Part shown: positions 2,336 to 18,942 of the stretch, one piece after another
How positions within the stretch are numbered: the first letter of the stretch is position 1
Layout: each line of letters opens with the position of its first letter
Assembly (NCBI GenBank): GCA_003009755.1
Contig: PXUB01000025.1
Coordinates: 85,187-104,214 of the forward strand
DNA length: 19,028 nt
Source of the DNA: Thermoplasmatales archaeon SW_10_69_26
Lineage (GTDB): Archaea; Thermoplasmatota; SW-10-69-26
Reading direction: 5' to 3'
Notes under the pieces: generated by a model
Databases searched by the model: none
What the model was told of the DNA's origin: nothing
Seen by the model: the letters and a program-made list of their open reading frames with translations, nothing else
Position numbers and translations under genes: made by a program

Positions 2336-2844
2336 CGACGGCAACCCAGCAGGCGCTGGCCGTGGTGTTCCGCCGGTTCAACGACGAGGTCGTGCCGCGC
2401 GACGACCTGGTGAAAGCGATGAGCCTCGAGCTGGACTGGACGAAGCCCTCCAGAGCCGAGAACCTGCTCGATCGCGGCCTCAACGGGGGCTACGTCGAGG
2501 AGCGGGATGGCGGGCTGGCGGCCGGCTTCGACGCGAGCGCGGTCGACGTCCCGTTCGGCTTCGCGCCCGCCGAGGACCTGTTCGAAGCCGTGGAGACGAC
2601 CGCCGACGGGGCGGCGTCGGCGAGCCCCGAGGAAACGCCGCTGCTGGATCGGTTGCTCGATCGCGTGGCCGACGCGTTGGGTGGCGATCGGAACGAGGCC
2701 ATGGCGGCCGCCAACGCTTGCCAGGACACGATGGGAGGCCTGGTCTCGATCGAGGCGGCCGCGCTCCTCGTCGCCCACCGCGAAGGGGTCGACGTGGGAG
2801 ACGAGGCCGAGCAGGTGCTGGACGCGCAGCGGGCGGAGGCCTAA
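2332..2844 (+). CDS. DUF2240 family protein
   Basis: ALAVVFRR...MSLELDWTKPSRAENLLDRGLNGGYV...FDASAVDVPFGFAP...IEAAALLVAHREGVDV is typical of archaeal DUF2240; GTGA overlap with the upstream stop. Confidence 0.8.
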   Translation: MTTATQQALAVVFRRFNDEVVPRDDLVKAMSLELDWTKPSRAENLLDRGLNGGYVEERDGGLAAGFDASAVDVPFGFAPAEDLFEAVETTADGAASASPEETPLLDRLLDRVADALGGDRNEAMAAANACQDTMGGLVSIEAAALLVAHREGVDVGDEAEQVLDAQRAEA

Positions 2845-4769
2845 CGCCGGCTGGACCTCGCGCGCGTGAGCGCGGCGCCGGACAAGGCGACGACCAGCGT
2901 CGCGAAGAACCCGACCGTGAACCATCCCACCGCCACCGAGCGGTAGGTGTGACCAAGCGGCGGGGACAGATCCTCGCCCTCCCAGGGTTCGACGAACTCG
3001 GTCGGTGTCGGCTCGCTGCCGGTTTCCAGCGTCGCGGACATGCCGGCGAGGACGCTGGCGGTGCGGTAGAAGCGCAGCGCGGCACCGTCCTCCTCCTGGA
3101 CGCCACCGAACTCGAACAGGGCGATCGGCAGGATCGGGTCCACGCCGAGCCCGCGCGCCTCCTGGATGGCGCGAGCGGCTGCATCGCGGGCCGTGTCGAG
3201 CTTGTCCTGCGTGATGAGGCCGGCTCGGAGCTCCACCGACAGCGCCGAGATGACCTGGGTCTCGGCCGCCTCGACGGCCGCGCCGGCGTGGAAGCCGCGG
3301 CGCTCGTTGTCGCGCGCCTGCCGCATCGACTGGGCCGCCTCGTTGGGCGGCCGGTCGCCGAGGATCTGGCTCGTGTACGCCAGCATCTCGTCGGCCAGGT
3401 CCAACATCTCGTCGGCGAGCTGGTCGGCCGGCACCGGCAGACCGGGGCCGGGCCCGAAGGCCTCATCCAGCTGCAACCACCAGTGGACGGTCGCCGAGCG
3501 CTCGATCGCGCGCGCCGCCGACTGCAGCGCCGTGCCGGGCTGCGGGGCTTGGGATCCGTTCCAGGCGCGCTCGGCCTGTCGGACGCGTTGCTCGGCGTCG
3601 GCGACGCGCTTTTGCGCGGCGCCGACGGTGTAGAGGCTCTGCATCCCCGTCACGTTGGCATCGCCGGCGGCCTGACGGGCGCGCTCGACGGTGGCGGACG
3701 CGTTGGCGATCGCCTCGTCGACGACGGCCGGGTCCCGGTCCTGCTGGTGGTAGCGGAACAGCAGCTCGGCGTGGCGGGCCTGGATGGCGGCCGCGAACGC
3801 GCGGCTGGCCGCGCTGTAGAAGCGCTCGGCGTCGACGTTGGCCTCGGCGCGCTGGACGTCGTCCTGGGCGCCTCGCAGGATCTCGACGATCTCCCGCGCG
3901 GGTTGCTCGGCCACCGAGCTGGCGTTGAGCTCGGCCCAGACGTCCTCGTAGATCCGGCCGCGGTCGATGAGCCGATCCGCGAGCGGAGCCAGCGTGTCCT
4001 CGTAGCCGGCCGTGGTCGGTCGATCGCCGAGCTCGGGCTGGACGAACCGGTGCCCGGTCGCGAGCTCGACGAGCTGCTTGAGGTTGCGGACCTCCTGGCA
4101 CTGGATGCGCAGCTCGTCACGGCAGTGCTCGCCGACGTCGACCGTTTCGCCGCCGCGTGCAGCGACGGTGCCCTGGCCTTCGGGGACGAGGAACAGGCCG
4201 GCACCACGGTCGGCGGCCGCCTCGGCCTTCTCGAGGATGCCACCGACGGGACCGATCGAGCCGTCCGGGTTGATCGTGCCCGTGACGAGCACGTCGTCGG
4301 TGATGTTCCACGCCGGCTCGTCGGGGGCTCGGTGGGCGTTCTCGAGCGCGACGGTCGCCGCCAACGCCATCACCGAGCCCGCCGAGGGCCCGGAGATGAC
4401 GGGCGAGTCGCTGCGGACCACGAAGTAGAAATCGTGGTTCTCGAGGGCGTAGCCGGTCGCCGAGGCCGCCACGCGCGCGGCGATGCGAGCCGAGCCCTGC
4501 ATGTCGGTGCCGGTCAGGGGCTGGGTGGCCAGGCTGACGCCACCGGTGCCGTTCGGGCTGACGGTCACGCTGATCGTCGCGACGGTGCCGACGGTCTCGC
4601 CGGCCTCGGTGCGGGCGACGGCGACGGCGTCCATCTGGGCGTTCTCGGACAGCTGCCGGGTTTCCTGCGCAAGCGCCCCGGTCGCCAGCGGTTGGACGGG
4701 GACGAGCAGGAGCGCGAGCAGCACGAACGCGACCGAGCGCACGCGGCGGGCACCATCCACGGGGGACAT
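2841..4769 (-). CDS. Exported Lon-like serine protease (S16 family, no ATPase) with helical C-terminal region and TM anchor
   Basis: Signal peptide; ISGPSAG (catalytic Ser) and VTGTINPDGSIGPVGGILEKAEAA (catalytic Lys); C-terminal hydrophobic helix followed by RARSSRR. Confidence 0.88.
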   Translation of the reverse strand: MSPVDGARRVRSVAFVLLALLLVPVQPLATGALAQETRQLSENAQMDAVAVARTEAGETVGTVATISVTVSPNGTGGVSLATQPLTGTDMQGSARIAARVAASATGYALENHDFYFVVRSDSPVISGPSAGSVMALAATVALENAHRAPDEPAWNITDDVLVTGTINPDGSIGPVGGILEKAEAAADRGAGLFLVPEGQGTVAARGGETVDVGEHCRDELRIQCQEVRNLKQLVELATGHRFVQPELGDRPTTAGYEDTLAPLADRLIDRGRIYEDVWAELNASSVAEQPAREIVEILRGAQDDVQRAEANVDAERFYSAASRAFAAAIQARHAELLFRYHQQDRDPAVVDEAIANASATVERARQAAGDANVTGMQSLYTVGAAQKRVADAEQRVRQAERAWNGSQAPQPGTALQSAARAIERSATVHWWLQLDEAFGPGPGLPVPADQLADEMLDLADEMLAYTSQILGDRPPNEAAQSMRQARDNERRGFHAGAAVEAAETQVISALSVELRAGLITQDKLDTARDAAARAIQEARGLGVDPILPIALFEFGGVQEEDGAALRFYRTASVLAGMSATLETGSEPTPTEFVEPWEGEDLSPPLGHTYRSVAVGWFTVGFFATLVVALSGAALTRARSSRR

Positions 4770-12149: not shown

Positions 12150-13253
12150 CTACCGGGTCCGCGAGGTCAGGTCGATGGTGGCGTCGGCGTCGGGCCCGGA
12201 GCTGGTGCCGCCGCGAGCATCGCCCTCCCACGTGTCCGCGAAAGCGTCGTAGTTGGCGGTGAGGACGTGGGTCTGCTGGTCGCCCGAGCGGACATCGATC
12301 GGCTCGCCGTCACCACCGTCGTCGTGCAGGAACGTCAGGCGGATCTCCTTCGCCCAGTTCCCGCTGGCGTAGGCACCGCCCAGCTCCTCGGTGAACTCGG
12401 AGCCGCGATCGGCGACGTCCAGCTCCATCGACCATTCCAGTTCGTTCTCGCCCCTCTCGATGGCTTGGGGTCCCTGGGTCGCCTGGGCCTGAGGGCCGTC
12501 GACCTCGACGAGCAGGTCGGCTCCGCCGTCGATCCGGAAGTCTTGCTTGAGGTTGACCGAGCGGATGTGCACCGTGACCCGCAGGTCGCCGAGAGGCGCG
12601 GCGTCGTTGAGGTCCAAGACACCGTCGTCGTCGGTGTCCTCGATGGTGGGACCGGTGGCCAGCTGTTTCTCGAGGCCGTCGTGGAGGCCGTCGCGATCCG
12701 TGTCGGCGTTCTGCAGGCCGGGGTTGGAGCGCGCGTGGTAGGCCTCGCCGGCGACCGGCTGGACCTGCCAGCCTTCGATCTCGGTGCCGTCGTCGAGCGT
12801 GTCGCTGAGCTGGGGGCTGCTGTCCGAGTGGGCATCCGCCGGGTTCGACCGGTAGGAGAAGTCGCCGATCTCGGTGCGTTGCTCGCCGAGGTAGCAGCCC
12901 GCGCGCTCGGGATGCTCGAGGACGTCGGCCTCGAGGATGCGATCCTCGAAGTCGGACCCGGACTCGGGGCACAGGGTAGCGCCGTCGAGCAGCCGGTCGC
13001 GGTCGGTGTCGACGGACCGGGGATCGATGCCCGCGTTGAGCTCGTCGAAGTCGTTGAGCCCGTCGCCGTCGGTGTCCGTCTGCGTGGGGTCGGAGGTGAC
13101 GTTGTAGGAGCGTTCGGTCCCGTCGGGGTAGCTGGCGCGCACGGTCCATCCGCCGGCTTCGGCGTCGGCGGGCAAACCGTCGCTGTCGCCACCGTCCGTG
13201 CACCCGACGAGGGGGACCGTGAGCAGGCAGACGGCCAGCAGGAGGCGTTTCAC
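12150..13253 (-). CDS. Lipoprotein with acidic Ca-binding (thrombospondin type 3-like) repeats
   Basis: Lipobox LVGC; repeats DPTQTDTDGDGLND, DPRSVDTDRDRLLD, NPGLQNADTDRDGLHD, PTIEDTDDDGVLD; beta-rich C-terminal domain; coupled to the upstream gene by GTGA. Confidence 0.8.
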   Translation of the reverse strand: MKRLLLAVCLLTVPLVGCTDGGDSDGLPADAEAGGWTVRASYPDGTERSYNVTSDPTQTDTDGDGLNDFDELNAGIDPRSVDTDRDRLLDGATLCPESGSDFEDRILEADVLEHPERAGCYLGEQRTEIGDFSYRSNPADAHSDSSPQLSDTLDDGTEIEGWQVQPVAGEAYHARSNPGLQNADTDRDGLHDGLEKQLATGPTIEDTDDDGVLDLNDAAPLGDLRVTVHIRSVNLKQDFRIDGGADLLVEVDGPQAQATQGPQAIERGENELEWSMELDVADRGSEFTEELGGAYASGNWAKEIRLTFLHDDGGDGEPIDVRSGDQQTHVLTANYDAFADTWEGDARGGTSSGPDADATIDLTSRTR

Positions 13254-14110
13254 TCGTACTTCACCTCGAACCAGTTGCCGGGCGGGTCCTCACGGTACAC
13301 GGTCGGATCCATCGGCACGTTCTCGTTGCCCCTGGCTTCGGCGTTGTGGAAGGTCGCGGTCACGTTGTAGGATCCCTCCGCTGGACGGTCCTCCTCGTAC
13401 TTCTGGGATTCGAAGTTGTCCCACGGCACGATCACGTTCGTGACCGCCGTCGTGTTCAACGGGACGGTCCCGTGGAAGACGTTGTCGTGCTGGGCCTGGC
13501 ACTCCTGGGTCTCGTTCGCGACGCCGAGCCCAGTTCCCAGCGGGCCCTGTCGGTCGCAGTCCTCCCAGTAGACGTCGAGCACGAGTTCGCCGGAGGTGAA
13601 CACGCTCGAGCTCAGCGGTTGGGCCTTCGACTGCGCCAGGGCGACCTCGATGCGGGTGCGCTCCTCGGTCTCGTTCGGGAACGAGCGGATGTAGACCCAG
13701 TTGACGACCTTCTCGACAGAGAAGCGGGTCTGGGCCTCGTCCTCGCCCATCGTGACCTCGACCTGGTACTGGCCGTTCTCGCCGGCGAACCTCTGGTAGG
13801 GGATCTCGAGCGTGCCCTCGCAGTCCTCGACCTCCACCTGGCCGAGGACGCTCGGGTAGACGATGATGTCGTCCTTGAGGATCTCGACGTCGGCCTCGTC
13901 CTCGCAGCCGCCGACCAGGCCCGGGTCCTTCTGGATCAAGACGGTGATCCCGTCCCCGGACTCGGGTGCCTCCACCGCGACGAAGAAGCTCTCACCGCCG
14001 CCGACGGCACCGCCGAACGTGGGCAGCAGGAGGACGAGCGCCACGATGCCGATGGCGAGCTTTTTCGCGTGGCGTCGAAGCCGCTCCGGCACCATGGTCC
14101 TCGTGTCCAT
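13250..14110 (-). CDS. Hypothetical exported or N-anchored beta-rich protein
   Basis: Basic N-region plus hydrophobic helix (KKLAIGIVALVLLLPTFG); acidic beta-strand pattern; four Cys; GGAGG upstream. Confidence 0.75.
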   Translation of the reverse strand: MDTRTMVPERLRRHAKKLAIGIVALVLLLPTFGGAVGGGESFFVAVEAPESGDGITVLIQKDPGLVGGCEDEADVEILKDDIIVYPSVLGQVEVEDCEGTLEIPYQRFAGENGQYQVEVTMGEDEAQTRFSVEKVVNWVYIRSFPNETEERTRIEVALAQSKAQPLSSSVFTSGELVLDVYWEDCDRQGPLGTGLGVANETQECQAQHDNVFHGTVPLNTTAVTNVIVPWDNFESQKYEEDRPAEGSYNVTATFHNAEARGNENVPMDPTVYREDPPGNWFEVKYE

Positions 14111-14163
14111 CGACGGGAGGCCTCCAAAAACTTCGCCTTACGGGAACGGCTCCCTTTGGCCCA

Positions 14164-15453
14164 TCAGGAGGGCTCCACGCCTCCGGCGGGGTCGCGGTCG
14201 ACCTCGTCCTCGGAGGGCTGTTGGGCGCGTTTGCGTTCCAAGAGGGCGCGCTTGCGCTCGAGCAGGCGCCGGCGTCGTCGGACGTCCTCGGGGTCGGGGC
14301 CCTCGCCCTCGCGGGCGTCCACGAGCGCCGCGTGGCGTTCGCGGTAGGCTTCCTGTAGGGCTTCCTCGGCCCGTTGGCGTTCCTGGTAGGCTTCCTTCCA
14401 GGCGTCCTTGCGCTGGTCGTACAGCGTCTGGAGCCGGTCCTCGACGACGTCGGCTCGCTCGGGGTCCTCGATCTTGAGGGCCTCGAGCTCGGCTTCGTGC
14501 TCGGGGTCGAGGCCCGGGTAGCTGGGCTTGCCCTTCTCCAGCTTGCGCCGCCGGATCTTGCGCGTCGTGCGCTTGGTGATGAGACCGACGCCGAGCAGCA
14601 ACAGCATCGCGTGGGGGGCCACCCACGCGGGGGCGTTGGCGCCGGATTGGGTGACGGGGATGTTGGTGGTGACGAGCGGCTGACCGTTGGTCTCCGAGAC
14701 CGCGCGGACCGTGATCAGGTCCGACGAGCTGGTGTAGAGGAACCAGGGGTTCTCCGGCGAGCGGACGTCGATGTAGACGGTCTTGGTCTCACCGGGAGCC
14801 AGGCGGATCGAGGAGGGGGGGGAGACCATCCATTCCTCGGGCCCGTTGACCTGGAAGGAGGCCATGTCGGGGTAGTAGTTGTTGTTCGTGACGGTGATCG
14901 GGACGCTGCGCTTCTGGTCGGGCTCGAAGTCGTCCGGGATCTCGGCCATCTGCATGTAGAGCCGCGGGAACGACTCGGCGACGGCGAGCACGGAGGCGTT
15001 CGCCACGGTCTCGTCACCGGAGACGGGGGTGTAGACCGCCGTGACGCGGACCTCGACCGTCGGGGCCTGGATGGTGGCGCCGGCCTGGATGTCGAGGTTG
15101 ATCTCGTGCGTGTCGCCGGGTTCGGTCTGGAGCGTGTACCGGTCGAGGCTGGCAGCCCAGCCGGCCGTGTTGTTGCCGACGATGTCGACGGAGAGCGAGA
15201 TCCGGTTGCGCTCCCGAGGGTTGTCCTCCGAGGTGGCCTGGGTGCTCACGTCTTCGACCGTGATCGGGATGTTGGCGGACCCGCGGAACTCGATCGACGC
15301 CGAGCCCTGCTGAGGAAGGACATTGGCCGCGTAGTTGTCCCGGGTGGTGTCGGGCTCGGGGACCTGCGCCTGGATCGGCGCAGCGAGGAGAAGGAGAGCA
15401 AGGAGGGGGAGCAAACCCCGTCGATGGCGGGCCCTGCTCCCCACAGGTGGCAC
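14164..15453 (-). CDS. Single-pass surface protein: two Ig-like domains, TM helix, charged coiled-coil tail
   Basis: Signal peptide (...AAPIQA); GWAASL...PGDT and EEWMVSPPSSIRLAPGETKTV Ig-like motifs; TM around HAMLLLLGVGLI; E/R/K-rich tail. Start position uncertain. Confidence 0.75.
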   Translation of the reverse strand: MPPVGSRARHRRGLLPLLALLLLAAPIQAQVPEPDTTRDNYAANVLPQQGSASIEFRGSANIPITVEDVSTQATSEDNPRERNRISLSVDIVGNNTAGWAASLDRYTLQTEPGDTHEINLDIQAGATIQAPTVEVRVTAVYTPVSGDETVANASVLAVAESFPRLYMQMAEIPDDFEPDQKRSVPITVTNNNYYPDMASFQVNGPEEWMVSPPSSIRLAPGETKTVYIDVRSPENPWFLYTSSSDLITVRAVSETNGQPLVTTNIPVTQSGANAPAWVAPHAMLLLLGVGLITKRTTRKIRRRKLEKGKPSYPGLDPEHEAELEALKIEDPERADVVEDRLQTLYDQRKDAWKEAYQERQRAEEALQEAYRERHAALVDAREGEGPDPEDVRRRRRLLERKRALLERKRAQQPSEDEVDRDPAGGVEPS

Positions 15454-15460
15454 CTCGAAG

Positions 15461-16390
15461 CTACTCGATCCGCTGTCGGCTCTTCGTCAGTGCCAGGGCC
15501 ACGCCGGTCATGGCGATCGCGCTCAAGGCGGCGCCGGGACCGGGCACGTAGAAGCCCTTGGTCTTCGTCAAGGTGGACACCTGCGAGCTGGCGCCCTCGA
15601 TGTTCGTGTCGGCAGCGTAGAAGCTGTCGACCTGGAGATCGATCGAGGCGATCCGGTTCACGTACCCGTTCTTGAACGGGGTGAACACCTGGAAGGTCGC
15701 CTGACCCTGCGTGTTCTCGCCGCCGGTCGCTTGCGAGCGCACCGTCAGCGGGCTGGGAAGCGCGGTCTGGAAGCCCTCGGGGGTGCCGCCCTCTTGGGCC
15801 ACGCTGAACTCGAAGCGGGTGTCCCCGTTGGAGAAGTTCTCGATCACCATCGGGAAGGTGACCTCGCTGTCGGGGCCACCCTCGGCGATCTTCCCGTCGA
15901 GTCGCACGTTGTACAGGTTGAAGTACCCGGGCGTGACGGCGATCTGCGTCGGGTTCGTCACGGCTTCCTGCCCCTCCCCGGTCCCCGGCTGCAGGTCGGG
16001 GACGAGGCGGAGCTGGGTCGCGACGAACGCCGGCGCGTCCTGCCTAAGGGACACCGAGACGGTGAAATCCTTCGTCTCCGTGCGCGTGTCGCCTTGAGGC
16101 GGGGTGAAGGTCATCGAGCTCGGGGAGATGATGACGTTCATCCAGGACTTCTGGTTGGCGGTGTTGATCGTAAGGGACGTCGGGTTGACGGGCTCGGACG
16201 TACCGCCCGACCATTCGACCTCAGCCGTGCACTGCCATTGCCCCGGAGGCCCGAGCGGCCGGATCTCTTCCGGGCCGGGGTCGCAGGTCAGGCTGCCAGT
16301 TACGTTTTGTTGCGCGCTCGCCGTGGGGACCAAGGCCATCGTAAGGCCCCCGGTCAGGAGCATCACTGCCAAGAGCTTTCGTGCCACCAT
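15461..16390 (-). CDS. Secreted Ig-like surface protein with PGF-CTERM-like (VPGPG) anchor; resembles Thermoplasmatota choice-of-anchor T proteins (tentative)
   Basis: Signal peptide ...TASA; VTPGYF...GPDSEVTFPMVIENFSNGDT; C-terminus GFYVPGPG + hydrophobic helix + KSRQR; GGAGG upstream. Family name is from recollection only. Confidence 0.7.
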   Translation of the reverse strand: MVARKLLAVMLLTGGLTMALVPTASAQQNVTGSLTCDPGPEEIRPLGPPGQWQCTAEVEWSGGTSEPVNPTSLTINTANQKSWMNVIISPSSMTFTPPQGDTRTETKDFTVSVSLRQDAPAFVATQLRLVPDLQPGTGEGQEAVTNPTQIAVTPGYFNLYNVRLDGKIAEGGPDSEVTFPMVIENFSNGDTRFEFSVAQEGGTPEGFQTALPSPLTVRSQATGGENTQGQATFQVFTPFKNGYVNRIASIDLQVDSFYAADTNIEGASSQVSTLTKTKGFYVPGPGAALSAIAMTGVALALTKSRQRIE

Positions 16391-16600
16391 GTGCTTGTCT
16401 CCTCCGCGCGTCTACTCGGAGGACCCCACAAGTGGGTTGCGGTCTCGTGGGCGACGCCTCCGTTCGACGCAGCCAGGGAGTCAGGCCGGAGACGGATAAC
16501 GTTTGTGGGTACGTCCTTTGACCGGCTGGACGGCCCCCGGGGGAGATCCGGGCCCGCGGGCGGTCGACCGGGGCGATGCTCGAAGGCCCTGCTCACCAAG

Positions 16601-16608
16601 CTTTTATC
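16601..16608 (+). promoter_or_regulatory. TATA box of the membrane repeat protein gene
   Basis: CTTTTATC ~25 nt before ATG 16633. Confidence 0.65.
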
Positions 16609-16632
16609 GGGGGAGTCTCGTCCCTTGGGCAC

Positions 16633-18942
16633 ATGGAAGACCGGTTCTCCGGTGATCTCAGCCTCCCCGAGGTCGATACGCCGGAGACCGGCGAGTGGTC
16701 ACAGTTCGTGCGCGAGCACTGGTGGACGGCGCTGCCGGCGCTGCTCGTCCTGTGGGGCGTGTTCTCGCTGCTGTTGTTCCCGATCGTCGGTTTCGTCACC
16801 GGCTCGATCACGGTCGGCATCCTCGCGTCGCCGCTGTTGGGCCTGGCCGCCGCGGGGGCGCTCGGCCATCGTTGGGGCCTGGTCGAACCCGTCGACGAGG
16901 CGAGACGCGATGCCCCGCTGTGGGCCCGCCTGCTCGTGCCGGTCCCCGTCTTCGCCGTCCTGTGGGCGCTGTTCTTCGTGGGCGTAGGCTCCTTCGTCCA
17001 GACCTTCACGCTAATCGCCGCGATCGCGACGGTGCTGGCGGCCGCCGCGACCGGCGCCGGCGTCGCCTCGCTGGGGCTCTGGCGAGGGTCGATCGAGACG
17101 ATCCGTGACGCGAGCCCGCTCGCGCGGCTGGGCATGCTCGCGAGTTTCGGCACCACGGTCGGCCTGCTCACGTTCGCGGGCATCGTCGTCGGCCTCGGCA
17201 ACGTGCCGCTGGCGCTGGCGACGCTCGTCCCCGTCGCGTTGCTGGCCGGCGTGGGCCTGGCCCACGGCCTCGGCTGGACCGAGGACGCCTACGAGGCGAT
17301 CCGGTCCCCGCACTTCGGCATCCGGTTGGGCGTCTTCGTCGTGCTCGAGGCGCTGTTGGCGGTCTACATCGCCGTCCAGGTCGGTCGGTTCATCCCGGAC
17401 GCCCGCTTCGCGTACGCGATCGGGATCGCGGCCGGCCTCGCCCTGCTCGTGCCCGCCACGATCTGGGTGCACGCCTGGCGGGACGCCTGGCAGGCGTTCA
17501 CCGACCTGGGCGAGGAGCACCGCGCGTTGGTGCTGTTGCCCGTGTTCCCGCTGGTCGCCGTCCTCGTCTTCGGTCTCGTCGTCGTGTTGACCGACAGCTT
17601 CGAGGCCGGCTACATCCTGAGCGTCCCGGCGGGGATCGCGGCCCTGCTGGCCGTGGGCGCGCCGCTGGGCGTGACCGGCAAGATCCCCTCGATCGTCCGC
17701 CGCAAGCAGCTGCCGACCCGGTCGGCGATCTTCCTGGCTTCCTTCGCGCTCCTCAGCGCGTACGCCTACCTCGGCTTCGCCCTCGTCATCCAGAACGTCG
17801 AGATCTCGCTCGTCGCCGGCATGGCGTTCGCCGGGCTCGTGCTCGGCGCCGTCAACTCGGCCTTCGACCTCGGCCGGGGGTTGGGCGAGGAGTTCGAGGC
17901 CTACGGCGCGCCCAGCGAGGCCGCCGTGCTCGTCAGCGTGTTCGCGCTGTCGCTGGCGCTGGCGTTCCTGGCGTTGGCGCTCACGACCGGCGACTTCCGG
18001 CTGGCGTTCCTGGTGAGCGTCGTCGTCGCCGCCGGCCTCAACTACCTGATCGCTCACTCGACCGGCCTCGTCGAGAGCATGCGAGCTGTCGTCGCCGACG
18101 TACCCTGGTGGGCCGACCTCGTCGTCCTGGCGGTGCTGTTCGCGGGCGTGGCGGCCTACGGCACCGTCGCGGTGGGCGTGTTCATCGCCAGCGCGCCCAT
18201 CGCGCTCACGGCCGGCGTGCTGCTGGGCCTGGGCGGCGTCGTGTTCTTCTCGCGCGACCTGGCGATCGGCCACGACGTGATGGCGGAGGCCGAGGAGCAG
18301 ACGACGGCCCGGGCCGTCGTGCTCCTGTTGGCCTTCCTGGGCGCCTTCCTCGCCGGGTTGTTCGCCTCCGGCGCCGCCCTCTCGCTGACCGGGACCGCGA
18401 TCTTCGGGTTTCCGCTCTTCGTCGCGGTCGTCACCGGCTCGGCGGCCGCGATCGCGCTGGCACGGTTCCGTGGCTGGGACGAGACCGTGCTCGGGCGCGT
18501 CCGCTCGCGCACGGACAAGCTCAAGGTCGTCACGATCCTCGCCGTCTGGTTGGCGGTCGGCATCTTCACCGGCTTCTCGCTCACCTCGCTGCCGGTCGGC
18601 GAGGCCGACCTCGGCATCGGCTCCTCGCCGAGCCTCCCGCTCACGCTCACGATCGGCGCCGGTCTCCTGTTGTGGATCTGGATGCCGGTCATCCTGTTCC
18701 GAGCCGTCGACGTGAGCCGCGGCCCCGCCGAGGCGACGATGGAGACCCGCGACCGCGGCCGGGCGCTCGCCAGCGCCGGATGGGGCCTGCTCGTGTTCGC
18801 GATCGTGCTCGTGACCGTGCTGTCGATCTTCAACCAGCCGGTGGTCGCCGTCGCTTCAGCCCTGGCCGTGGGGTACTTGGTGGCCCTGCTCATCAGCACC
18901 CGCGGCTCTCGGAACGACCCCGAGGACGTTGAGGGCTCATAG
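16633..18942 (+). CDS. 769-aa polytopic membrane protein (~20-22 TM helices) made of 66-aa tandem repeats; function unknown
   Basis: Start MEDRFSG at ATG 16633; alternating hydrophobic hairpins and amphipathic linkers with an exact 66-aa period over residues 27-554; stop TAG 18940-18942. Confidence 0.85.
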   Translation: MEDRFSGDLSLPEVDTPETGEWSQFVREHWWTALPALLVLWGVFSLLLFPIVGFVTGSITVGILASPLLGLAAAGALGHRWGLVEPVDEARRDAPLWARLLVPVPVFAVLWALFFVGVGSFVQTFTLIAAIATVLAAAATGAGVASLGLWRGSIETIRDASPLARLGMLASFGTTVGLLTFAGIVVGLGNVPLALATLVPVALLAGVGLAHGLGWTEDAYEAIRSPHFGIRLGVFVVLEALLAVYIAVQVGRFIPDARFAYAIGIAAGLALLVPATIWVHAWRDAWQAFTDLGEEHRALVLLPVFPLVAVLVFGLVVVLTDSFEAGYILSVPAGIAALLAVGAPLGVTGKIPSIVRRKQLPTRSAIFLASFALLSAYAYLGFALVIQNVEISLVAGMAFAGLVLGAVNSAFDLGRGLGEEFEAYGAPSEAAVLVSVFALSLALAFLALALTTGDFRLAFLVSVVVAAGLNYLIAHSTGLVESMRAVVADVPWWADLVVLAVLFAGVAAYGTVAVGVFIASAPIALTAGVLLGLGGVVFFSRDLAIGHDVMAEAEEQTTARAVVLLLAFLGAFLAGLFASGAALSLTGTAIFGFPLFVAVVTGSAAAIALARFRGWDETVLGRVRSRTDKLKVVTILAVWLAVGIFTGFSLTSLPVGEADLGIGSSPSLPLTLTIGAGLLLWIWMPVILFRAVDVSRGPAEATMETRDRGRALASAGWGLLVFAIVLVTVLSIFNQPVVAVASALAVGYLVALLISTRGSRNDPEDVEGS

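Follow-up and report, generated by a model that had tools for sequence, protein, structure and literature searches.

The question raised by this locus is what kind of protein is encoded on the plus strand at 16633..18942 of the window (the whole 19,028-nucleotide stretch of DNA analysed here), for which a first-pass annotation had proposed a chain of transmembrane (TM) hairpins with an exact 66-aa period, and what such a chain might do in an archaeal membrane. 16633..18942 is a genuine coding gene for a membrane protein of 769 aa (plus the stop codon), with a GC content of 0.95 at the third codon position and orthologs that are 41-98% identical to its product. The open reading frame itself extends further upstream (16576..18942, plus strand, 788 aa) to an in-frame ATG at 16576; the homologs all begin at the equivalent of its Met-20 (ATG 16633), which gives the 769-aa protein, and this start is further supported by a TATA-like box located 25-30 nt before it. 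The box suggests a leaderless or short-leader archaeal transcript, its promoter role being read from position. Residues are numbered from ATG 16633, as in the first-pass annotation, so that residue 27 begins at base 16711 and eight units of 198 nt end at 18294.

16603..16608, plus strand: TATA-like box TTTTAT, 25-30 nt upstream of ATG 16633, read from the sequence
16633..16710, plus strand: N-terminal acidic segment, residues 1-26, predicted to be cytoplasmic, poorly conserved (mean column conservation 0.45)

DNA near-identical to the gene was found in halite metagenomes only, no RNA runs being listed among the sequencing runs that contain it, and contigs from a second study carry relatives at about 98% identity. 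Sequencing-run contigs over the gene revealed no convincing joint of unit size (198 nt), and the joints that are listed there have short sides and probably derive from other organisms. Open reading frames on the opposite strand or out of frame with the gene (e.g. 17011..18273, minus strand, 420 aa) were dismissed as high-GC shadow frames, because the plus frame alone passed the codon-position GC test.

From residue 27 onwards the protein divides without gaps into eight 66-aa units (16711..18294), whose starts (REHWWTA, DAPLWAR, DASPLAR, SPHFGIR, DLGEEHR, RKQLPTR, AYGAPSE and DVPWWAD) are exactly those originally described, as is the Arg at unit position 7 in units 2-6, with E and then D in the next two. 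The bit scores below come from profiles in which each unit was left out and the HMM was built from the other seven.

16711..16908, plus strand: unit 1, residues 27-92, 25.3 bits; TM helix, turn, TM helix, interfacial helix (AlphaFold2 helices 30-56, 59-80 and 84-93)
16909..17106, plus strand: unit 2, residues 93-158, 33.4 bits; duplicated in the orthologs of 837-843 aa
17107..17304, plus strand: unit 3, residues 159-224, 24.5 bits
17305..17502, plus strand: unit 4, residues 225-290, 22.6 bits; block-duplicated together with unit 3 in the 902-aa ortholog P0006
17503..17700, plus strand: unit 5, residues 291-356, 36.1 bits
17701..17898, plus strand: unit 6, residues 357-422, 27.7 bits; invariant Q387 and E390 in the turn
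17899..18096, plus strand: unit 7, residues 423-488, 30.3 bits; 20 invariant columns, including D454, R456, N470, H475 and T477, the highest conservation among the regular units
18097..18294, plus strand: unit 8, residues 489-554, 34.7 bits

The periodicity exceeds chance by every measure applied. BLOSUM62 scores of the protein against itself peak at offsets of 132 (z 5.08), 66 (z 4.23) and 198 (z 2.67), the hydropathy autocorrelation at the same offsets is 0.30, 0.25 and 0.21, and the eight leave-one-out scores (22.6-36.1 bits) compare with maxima of 5.0-13.8 bits among shuffled sequences (200 per unit) and at most 2.0 bits for reversed ones. No 198-nt repeat was found at the DNA level in the gene, so the repeat must be old; the view of the locus as an old structural repeat in a polytopic membrane protein thus gains support. 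The exactness of the 66-aa length holds for the eight units of the window protein and does not extend to all its relatives, some of which carry insertions of 6-9 residues, exclusively at the extracellular turn; a MAFFT alignment of 40 units from five orthologs is gapped internally at a single place, where two orthologs carry a 9-column insertion in unit 4.

Beneath the 66-aa repeat lies a second, longer one. The offset-132 peak exceeds that at offset 66, and in hhalign comparisons of unit pairs (means taken by hand) units of the same parity score 23.1 on average (12 pairs) vs 13.3 for units of different parity (16 pairs); the greater likeness of same-parity units indicates a 132-aa super-repeat of four TM helices. 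It had been proposed that homologs be inspected for differences in unit number, and they do differ, in steps of one or two units: the window protein has eight regular units, P0007, P0008, P0009, P0011 and the ortholog in genome G005 have nine, and P0006 has ten. The extra unit of P0007, P0009 and P0011 matches unit 2 at 42-51% identity, while P0006 (902 aa) aligns with itself over 130 aa without gaps (score 231), which corresponds to a duplication of units 3 and 4. As these alignments read, the extra ortholog units are recent duplicates, and the array is best described as having grown through tandem duplication, with a two-unit block (132 aa, 4 TM helices) duplicated first, and as still varying among orthologs by one or two units. 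The 132-aa super-repeat, together with the C-terminal module and the six-unit sister family described below, was absent from the first-pass annotation.

The anatomy of a unit agrees with the order originally proposed (TM helix, turn, TM helix, amphipathic helix), which fits the per-position profile, the helices of the AlphaFold2 model and the peak of hydrophobic moment. Each unit opens with a short polar stretch that includes W5 and R7 (60% of the 40 units have K/R at position 7). Next comes a Phe-rich TM helix of about 23 residues, with Phe at positions 15 and 23 in 23/40 and 25/40 units, respectively. The second TM helix, of about 18 residues, bears a stripe of small residues at every fourth position (36, 40, 44 and 52 in 31, 34, 39 and 28 of the 40 units), and is followed by a Gly and a 10-residue interfacial helix, predicted to lie on the cytoplasmic side. 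The hydrophobic stretches themselves cover unit positions 8-30 and 35-52, where the AlphaFold2 model has helices of about 27 and 22 residues, and are separated by an acidic turn of 3-4 residues, which at positions 31-32 contains D/E and lacks K/R in the 40-unit profile. The hydrophobic moment reaches 0.50-0.53 at positions 56-59, vs a mean of 0.22; the amphipathicity of the linker helix is above 95% of its own shuffles in three of the eight units, and weak in units 7 and 8. In units 1-8, 20 K/R residues are found in linkers and two in turns, and from this distribution we infer that the linkers and interfacial helices are cytoplasmic and the turns extracellular. Charges are almost missing from the TM segments of these units (one D/E and one K/R in total in the first helices, zero in the second), and 28 of 43 conserved polar residues reside in the linkers. 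Mean-field DCA on 119 units produced no ladder of contacts between the two TM helices, only artefacts of end gaps and unit identity.

Two or three looser units had been proposed to follow unit 8. Units 9 and 11 bear this out narrowly, with scores just over their shuffle maxima, while unit 10 has no repeat signal.

18295..18513, plus strand: unit 9, residues 555-627 (73 aa), degenerate hairpin, 8.8 bits vs a shuffle maximum of 6.6
18514..18753, plus strand: unit 10, residues 628-707 (80 aa), two-TM hairpin without repeat signal (-0.3 bits)
18586..18639, plus strand: long predicted extracellular loop, residues 652-669, SLPVGEADLGIGSSPSLP, with P654, G661, G663 and P669 invariant in the alignment
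18754..18939, plus strand: unit 11, residues 708-769, last degenerate hairpin and a short acidic tail, 9.6 bits vs a shuffle maximum of 9.1

This C-terminal module is non-repeat-like and better conserved than the regular units. Unit 10 shows the highest conservation in the whole protein (0.73, 22 invariant columns), and its loop 652-669 is the sole long extracellular loop predicted, on a topology derived from the K/R distribution. Invariant polar residues occur in units 6, 7 and 10 (Q387, E390, D454, R456, N470, H475 and T646).

The family is very narrowly distributed. Among 1.84 billion proteins it has four representatives; a word-indexed search with the family profile yielded no further members, and a scan of metagenome contigs no relative. 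The long form is present in all six genomes of one uncultured Thermoplasmatota family and in none of the 15 others in the class, while a short form of about 470 aa with six hairpins shows the complementary pattern (0/6 and 13/15, respectively), and the unit profile finds matches with E-values of 1.4e-6 to 1.1e-3 in 11 of the 15 genomes outside the family. Aligned with hhalign, the two family profiles match with a probability of 95.7% (E 8.9e-9, 343 columns, score 76.6), long-form residues 296-653 against short-form residues 16-395; reversed controls scored 35.9 and 37.0, and eight block-shuffled ones 20.1-24.5. The long form may on this basis be regarded as remotely homologous to the six-hairpin family, with the reserve that this is a single profile-profile score between two TM-rich repeat proteins. 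Both consist of tandem 2-TM hairpins in which a motif containing Gly follows the second helix; however, the short proteins (12 TM helices, 447-502 aa at 10 genome loci) comprise six units that vary in length (about 66-83 aa), have a G-x-P motif after the second helix, unlike the long form, and end in a basic coiled tail, whereas the window protein has 11 hairpins in 769 aa, eight of them exact 66-aa units and three looser, and a short acidic tail. The short-family gene lies directly 3' of kptA (PF01885) in 9/10 loci; there is none at the rpiA-kptA locus of the window's genome, and in genome G000 an unrelated gene comes after kptA, at a distance of about 500 bp. The long form appears to be one Thermoplasmatota family's expanded counterpart of a class-wide six-hairpin protein, although, given the different genomic context of the short form, they may instead be paralogs. 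The short family likewise lacks a significant match in Pfam or the PDB, and no ESM Atlas structure matched it with a TM-score of at least 0.5.

Could the protein represent a new family of transporters, channels or flippases, in which some of the 22 helices line a pathway and the polar residues of units 6, 7 and 10 form the substrate site? It is large and polytopic, the C-terminal half brings together its invariant residue pairs (Q387/E390, D454/R456 and N470/H475) and the conserved G-I-G loop, and P0020 is automatically labelled 'MFS family permease', in a single source and alone among short-family proteins otherwise named 'hypothetical protein'. We nevertheless consider this reading unlikely. 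The statement that the protein belongs to no recognisable transporter family stood up to the searches: the window protein has no match in Pfam or NCBIfam at E <= 1, and profile searches of PDB sequences with the full-length, sister-family and unit alignments gave nothing meaningful, only single-helix matches at chance level (E 0.04 or worse). At E <= 0.1, 12 family members produced one match, of one member to DUF1129 (E 0.022), and 10 members of the short family none to MFS; none of these scans of the window protein, the 12 family members and the 10 short-family members (the last also at E <= 0.1) matched an MFS, APC or DUF2339-type fold, suggested earlier as an alternative account of the periodicity. 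Moreover, charged residues are nearly absent from the TM segments of units 1-8, and carriers usually consist of two inverted or parallel halves, whereas here there are 11 direct repeats of the same topology. Finally, orthologs have acquired one or two extra 2-TM units mid-chain, a change that a defined pathway would rarely tolerate.

A second possibility is suggested by the neighbourhood. A divergent four-gene operon (12150..16390, minus strand) adjoins the repeat gene, and the two are arranged head-to-head in all five family genomes with a contig extending to the operon (G000, G001, G003, G004 and G005); in G002 the contig ends at the repeat gene, which places it outside this count. The operon products have signal peptides or lipobox-like N-termini, and two of them match 'choice-of-anchor T' with E-values of 1.7e-13 and 4.1e-7, below the 70-bit cut-off. 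The repeat protein, with its one conserved outside loop, might then serve as a membrane anchor or assembly platform for these surface proteins. We regard this as improbable, since the operon is class-wide (21/21 genomes have a match to its first gene and 20/21 to its last), no repeat protein adjoins it at any of the eight loci fetched from other families, and the short sister family resides elsewhere, next to kptA. On the other side of the repeat gene, the order of a tRNA methyltransferase and a ferritin-like gene is also kept within the family, so the adjacency to the operon may be plain inherited synteny.

The reading that we tentatively favour over a transporter, without giving it the better half of our confidence, is that of a structural, non-catalytic array in the membrane that ends in a conserved C-terminal module. 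It draws on the nearly charge-free TM segments, the conservation concentrated in cytoplasmic linkers and the variable number of units, and is reached largely by exclusion: tolerance of added units, lack of buried charges and conservation of the cytoplasmic face would argue against a precisely shaped pore or active site. Of the functions suggested at the outset (scaffold, pore or curvature protein), we lean towards a scaffold and away from a pore or transporter. The gene product is a protein of the archaeal cytoplasmic membrane with about 22 predicted TM helices, i.e. 11 hairpins in a row. The stripes of Phe and of small residues might let these hairpins pack side by side and build an array extended in the membrane plane, the inner leaflet of which would be lined by a conserved layer of the 11 interfacial helices. 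Such an array could act as a non-catalytic structural element, e.g. a scaffold, stiffener or spacer, in which hairpins 9-11, with the single conserved outside loop, would supply a specific contact site. The side-by-side packing and any extended shape, including the solenoid or ring originally proposed, are conjecture, because the full-length AlphaFold2 model (12 sequences) is unreliable (mean pLDDT 55.1, pTM 0.32).

The invariant polar residues of units 6, 7 and 10 might just as well belong to a site of binding or catalysis, an observation that speaks against a structural role.

Internal duplication is a common origin of membrane proteins; what is unusual is a chain of at least eight direct hairpin repeats of equal length whose number varies among close relatives, and a literature search revealed no described natural counterpart. 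With the repeat protein, one uncultured Thermoplasmatota group (a salt-rock archaeon) shows a lineage-specific innovation. If the extended in-plane array were true, it would provide a natural model for the folding and growth of TM repeat proteins, for membrane stiffening or bending by protein arrays, and for the design of modular membrane scaffolds, with a weight limited by the very small size of the family and a function that we infer.

Proteins of the MFS, APC and DUF2339 type (the last of which we take to be PF10101) share with the repeat protein many TM helices and internal duplication. The MFS layout consists of two domains of 6+6 TM helices, whereas here 11 2-TM repeats follow one another directly. 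Alpha-solenoids and designed circular tandem-repeat proteins likewise have helix-turn-helix units of fixed length, but they are soluble; proteins of these kinds ranked highest among the structural neighbours of the AlphaFold2 model, all at E 0.57 or above, and one of the latter, 7rdr_A, was the best Foldseek match in the PDB, which is not significant (E 0.57, TM-score 0.18-0.26, model pLDDT 55), and nothing was found there at E <= 0.001 with this low-confidence model. The ESM Atlas offered no usable look-alike of the long form (best feature score 0.76, TM-scores of at most 0.26 by query), and the phrase 'transmembrane solenoid' has 0 occurrences in about 8.4 million texts.

In Piezo channels a curved arm is joined to a trimeric pore module; the arm, or blade, comprises nine tandem 4-TM 'transmembrane helical units' (e.g. 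PMC13490357). The repeat protein resembles it in the long direct array of TM blocks (the evolutionary block being 4 TM helices, 132 aa) and in the helices at the intracellular surface, followed by a distinct, better conserved C-terminal module; it is, however, far smaller, archaeal and devoid of a cap or pore domain, which makes this an analogy of architecture and not of membership. By that analogy, the variable array of 4-TM blocks with its inner-leaflet helices might sense tension or osmotic stress by deforming or reading the membrane, and relay this to a C-terminal module that oligomerizes or gates. The super-repeat with its two interfacial helices per block, the placement of all these helices on one leaflet, the Gly-rich loop of the C-terminal module and the restriction of near-identical DNA to halite, where we suppose osmotic swings to be strong, would suit such a sensor. 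Neither Piezo nor any other channel resembles the protein in sequence or fold, with no Piezo match in Pfam, among PDB sequences (E <= 10) or by Foldseek (E <= 0.001, low-confidence model); the outside loop has only about 18 residues, and oligomerization is a supposition. This places a sensor among the very remote readings. Somewhat less far-fetched, if still a long shot, would be a natural transmembrane solenoid, in which the 2-TM hairpins of a single chain, stacked in the membrane plane, form an open arm of adjustable length, with all eleven interfacial helices on the inner leaflet and an oligomerizing or gating C-terminal module, serving Piezo-like membrane shaping or tension sensing tuned by the number of units.

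For the structural array that we favour, the sequence of a hairpin and an interfacial amphipathic helix in each unit also invites comparison with curvature proteins. Reticulon and REEP proteins bend membranes with short hairpins that do not span the bilayer, accompanied by an amphipathic helix. The repeat protein, which has no Pfam match, differs from them in its full-length hairpins (about 23 + 18 residues), present in eleven copies per chain. At this length, and with charged residues at either end, the hairpins are expected to cross the whole bilayer instead of inserting into a single leaflet.

The window is archaeal and GC-rich (67-73%), and its housekeeping genes include those for a DUF2240 protein and a class I lysyl-tRNA synthetase. 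The repeat protein is encoded by the following open reading frame (ORF):

16576..18942, forward strand: ORF of 788 aa, third-codon-position GC 0.95

ORFs overlapping it in other frames were rejected as shadow frames by codon-position GC. All homologs start at the equivalent of Met-20, and a TTTTAT box is located at 16603..16608, 25-30 nt 5' of the ATG at 16633, a position that suggests a leaderless transcript; we therefore take the gene as 16633..18942 (769 aa), in agreement with the residue numbering of the first-pass annotation. The search for DNA near-identical to 16576..18942 gave matches solely in halite metagenome runs, from three studies, one of which may be where the sequence came from; contigs of a second study carry the gene at ~98% identity (e.g. 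27 differences in 1645 nt).

The 66-aa periodicity of this protein is above chance. The first-pass annotation had divided it, from residue 27, into eight gap-free units of 66 residues with Arg at position 7 in five consecutive units; the division was reproduced exactly, down to the first seven residues of each unit, and the Arg residues belong to units 2-6, followed by Glu and Asp. Ungapped self-comparison scores peak at offsets 132 (z 5.08), 66 (z 4.23) and 198 (z 2.67), and hydropathy autocorrelation has its maxima there too (0.30, 0.25 and 0.21, respectively). When each of units 1-8 was left out in turn, it scored 22.6-36.1 bits against a profile of the other seven units taken from 12 family members, as compared with maxima of 5.0-13.8 bits for 200 composition-preserving shuffles per unit and at most 2.0 bits for reversed units. 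Profile-profile comparison yielded E-values of 1.6e-6 to 1e-4 in 11 of the 28 pairs of units 1-8, over 62-66 columns, and a MAFFT alignment of 40 units from five orthologs is free of internal gaps, save for one insertion of nine columns that two orthologs have in unit 4. Among the looser units reported to follow, 9 and 11 were recovered marginally (8.8 and 9.6 bits; shuffle maxima 6.6 and 9.1), and unit 10 was not (-0.3 bits). No 198-nt repeat was found in the gene at the DNA level; the duplications are therefore old, as had been proposed. In both self-comparisons offset 132 exceeds offset 66, and same-parity unit pairs (n = 12) have a mean hhalign score (computed by hand) of 23.1, versus 13.3 for different-parity pairs (n = 16), which suggests an older building block of two hairpins (4 TM helices, 132 aa). 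This super-repeat had been missed in the first pass.

Per-position counts over the 40 aligned units reveal the anatomy of the unit. The first seven positions are polar; Pro occurs at 3, Trp at 5 (16/40) and Arg at 7 (24/40; K/R 60%, D/E 25%). A hydrophobic segment (8-30) comes next, in which Phe is frequent at 15 (23/40) and 23 (25/40); it is followed by a turn (31-34), with D/E present and K/R absent at 31-32, and by a second hydrophobic segment (35-52), with G/A/S at 36, 40, 44 and 52 in 31, 34, 39 and 28 of the 40 units. Position 56 is Gly in 25/40, and hydrophobic and charged residues alternate at 57-66. The earlier reading of the unit as TM helix, turn, TM helix and amphipathic helix fits this profile, the mean helical hydrophobic moment, which is highest for segments starting at positions 56-59 (0.50-0.53 vs 0.22 for all phases), and a low-confidence AF2 model, in which most units comprise helices of ~27, ~22 and then ~10 residues; taken singly, only three of the eight linkers (the interfacial helices) beat 95% of their own shuffles, those of units 7 and 8 being weak. 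Units 1-8 contain 20 Lys and Arg residues in the linkers and two in the turns; by the positive-inside rule, the linkers and both termini should therefore be cytoplasmic, and the turns are predicted to lie outside.

The family is very small. Among 8000 candidates scored from a 5.8-billion-protein collection, nine proteins match at E <= 1e-3, and an exhaustive search of 1.84 billion cluster representatives returned four matches, one of them a 103-aa fragment. A scan of metagenome contigs found no relative, and the family profile added no members. The protein is present in all six species of one order (one family, four genera) and was found in none of the 15 class genomes outside that order (72-100% complete). 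Its lengths cluster at 764-786, 837-843 and 902 aa. By the unit profile, the window protein has eight regular units, the orthologs P0007, P0008, P0009, P0011 and that of genome G005 have nine, and P0006 has ten; the counting profile was built from units 1-8, hence only the extra units are independent matches. In P0007, P0009 and P0011 the additional unit shares 42-51% identity with the adjoining unit 2, and in P0006 a gap-free alignment of 130 residues matches the two additional units to units 3-4 of the same protein. These similarities indicate that unit number changes by recent tandem duplication, one or two units per step. The stepwise variation anticipated in the first pass thus holds; the exact length of 66 holds for most units of most orthologs, and the exceptions are insertions of 6-9 residues, all at the outside turn.

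When the 66-column unit profile was searched against 401 genomes of the phylum, strong matches (E <= 1e-10; 8-9 units in each genome) were confined to the six family genomes. Eleven of the 15 other class genomes have weak matches (E 1.4e-6 to 1.1e-3), located in ORFs of 456-583 aa, and the 380 genomes outside the class gave 16 isolated weak matches in assorted ORFs. The class-level ORFs make up a short family of ~470 aa (447-502 aa at ten loci). Its members have six TM hairpins of unequal length (12 TM helices) and a C-terminal tail that is basic; a G-x-P motif follows the second helix. The short family has been identified in 13 of the 15 non-family class genomes and in none of the six family genomes. 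An example is:

L039:1375-2880, reverse strand: short-family gene, among loci L033-L042 from other families of the class

Comparison of the long- and short-family alignments with hhalign gave 95.7% probability, E 8.9e-9 and a score of 76.6 over 343 columns, the controls scoring 35.9-37.0 with either alignment reversed and 20.1-24.5 in eight block-wise column shuffles; the two families are probably homologous. At nine of ten loci the gene immediately upstream of the short-family gene is kptA (RNA 2'-phosphotransferase; PF01885, E 5.7e-31), with rpiA nearby. Because the rpiA-kptA locus of the window's genome lacks a short-family gene, the long form would be either a relocated, expanded counterpart of the short form or a paralog that replaced it. 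The short-family profile has three weak matches in the family genomes, two of them inside the long gene. A weak match elsewhere in the window's genome, at G000:C17:64009-64209 (reverse strand, E 3.4e-3) in a 528-aa ORF, may be due to chance or to another hairpin-type membrane protein. Of the 31 relatives of the short family, one bears an automatic 'MFS family permease' label and the rest are 'hypothetical', and no significant Pfam match, PDB match or usable Atlas match was found; like the long family, the short one is a separate family that lacks annotation.

For the window protein, Pfam revealed no family at E <= 1, and the sole NCBIfam row was a chance-level match of 10.9 bits; a scan of 12 family members with a limit of E <= 0.1 yielded one DUF1129 match (0.022) and nothing else. 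The family profile matched no PDB chain at E <= 10. In the ESM Atlas the best feature score was 0.76, below the level often reached by shuffled proteins, and structure TM-scores were 0.26 or less by query. The AF2 model (mean pLDDT 55.1, pTM 0.32, no residue above 90) gave only Foldseek matches of E >= 0.57 in the PDB, headed by a designed circular tandem-repeat protein and then HEAT-like solenoids, suggestive neighbors to which we give no weight. The protein may form the solenoid or ring proposed in the first pass, a shape that these comparisons neither favor nor contradict. A confident match to an MFS, APC or DUF2339-like fold was looked for and not found, in keeping with the earlier remark that the protein resembles no transporter family recognized in the first pass; by these searches, the protein is a genuine orphan of unusual architecture within a small clade. 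A new transporter or channel is an unlikely reading of such a polytopic protein; the TM segments of its regular units are nearly charge-free. The first-pass observation of the repeat is thus confirmed and extended, and its interpretation is partly supported, since the protein has no known family, an old structural repeat and a variable number of units.

The repeat gene is arranged head-to-head with a four-gene operon (12150..16390, reverse strand):

15461..16390, reverse strand: predicted cell-surface protein
14164..15453, reverse strand: predicted cell-surface protein
13250..14110, reverse strand: predicted cell-surface protein
12150..13253, reverse strand: predicted cell-surface protein

Two of the products are described by their signal peptides: one of these carries a C-terminal TM anchor, and the other combines an NPCBM_assoc domain with a TM segment and a coiled tail that is long and charged. 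Of the remaining two, one is anchored at its N-terminus and one is lipoprotein-like, bearing Asp-rich repeats of the TSP3 type. Two of the four products score 50.3 and 29.4 bits against 'choice-of-anchor T', below the cut-off of 70. That the repeat protein anchors these surface proteins is a rather improbable alternative. The head-to-head arrangement is found in all five family genomes whose contig reaches far enough. The operon, however, is class-wide (first gene, with several paralogs per genome, in 21/21 genomes; last gene in 20/21), no repeat protein was found beside it at eight loci from other families, and the gene order on the other flank of the repeat gene is likewise conserved within the family; adjacency therefore weighs little. 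About 0.7 kb past the 3' end of the window (L009:8920-10710, forward strand) there is a predicted secreted protein of 596 aa that contains Gly/Asp-rich repeats (about six, D-x-G-G-D-D-x-Y type), each paired with Cys-containing stretches; its best Pfam match is not significant (E 0.27), and NCBIfam gave none at E <= 0.1. Elsewhere in the window (2841..4769, reverse strand), a 642-aa protein matches a single Pfam family, the Lon protease C-terminal proteolytic domain (E 2.4e-6), at residues 50-224 and thus close to the N-terminus; its other ~400 residues are unassigned.

As for the mode of action, 28 of the 43 conserved polar residues of units 1-8 are in the cytoplasmic linkers, and the most conserved parts of the protein are units 6-7 and 9-10, unit 10 having the only long outside loop (predicted), in which P654, G661, G663 and P669 are invariant. 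From the copy-number differences we infer that whole-unit gain is tolerated in the middle of the chain. Together with the charge-poor TM segments, these features lead us to propose, tentatively, a modular, non-catalytic structural membrane array with a specific C-terminal module. Its hairpins would pack laterally, a Phe stripe against a stripe of small residues, under a layer of inner-leaflet helices. A Piezo-like tension device is very unlikely; the comparisons with Piezo and with reticulons are analogies. The remaining probability falls to readings other than the structural array, transporter or channel, surface-protein anchor and tension device. Polytopic proteins that arose via tandem duplication of blocks of TM helices are a known kind, and the repeat protein is a variant thereof.
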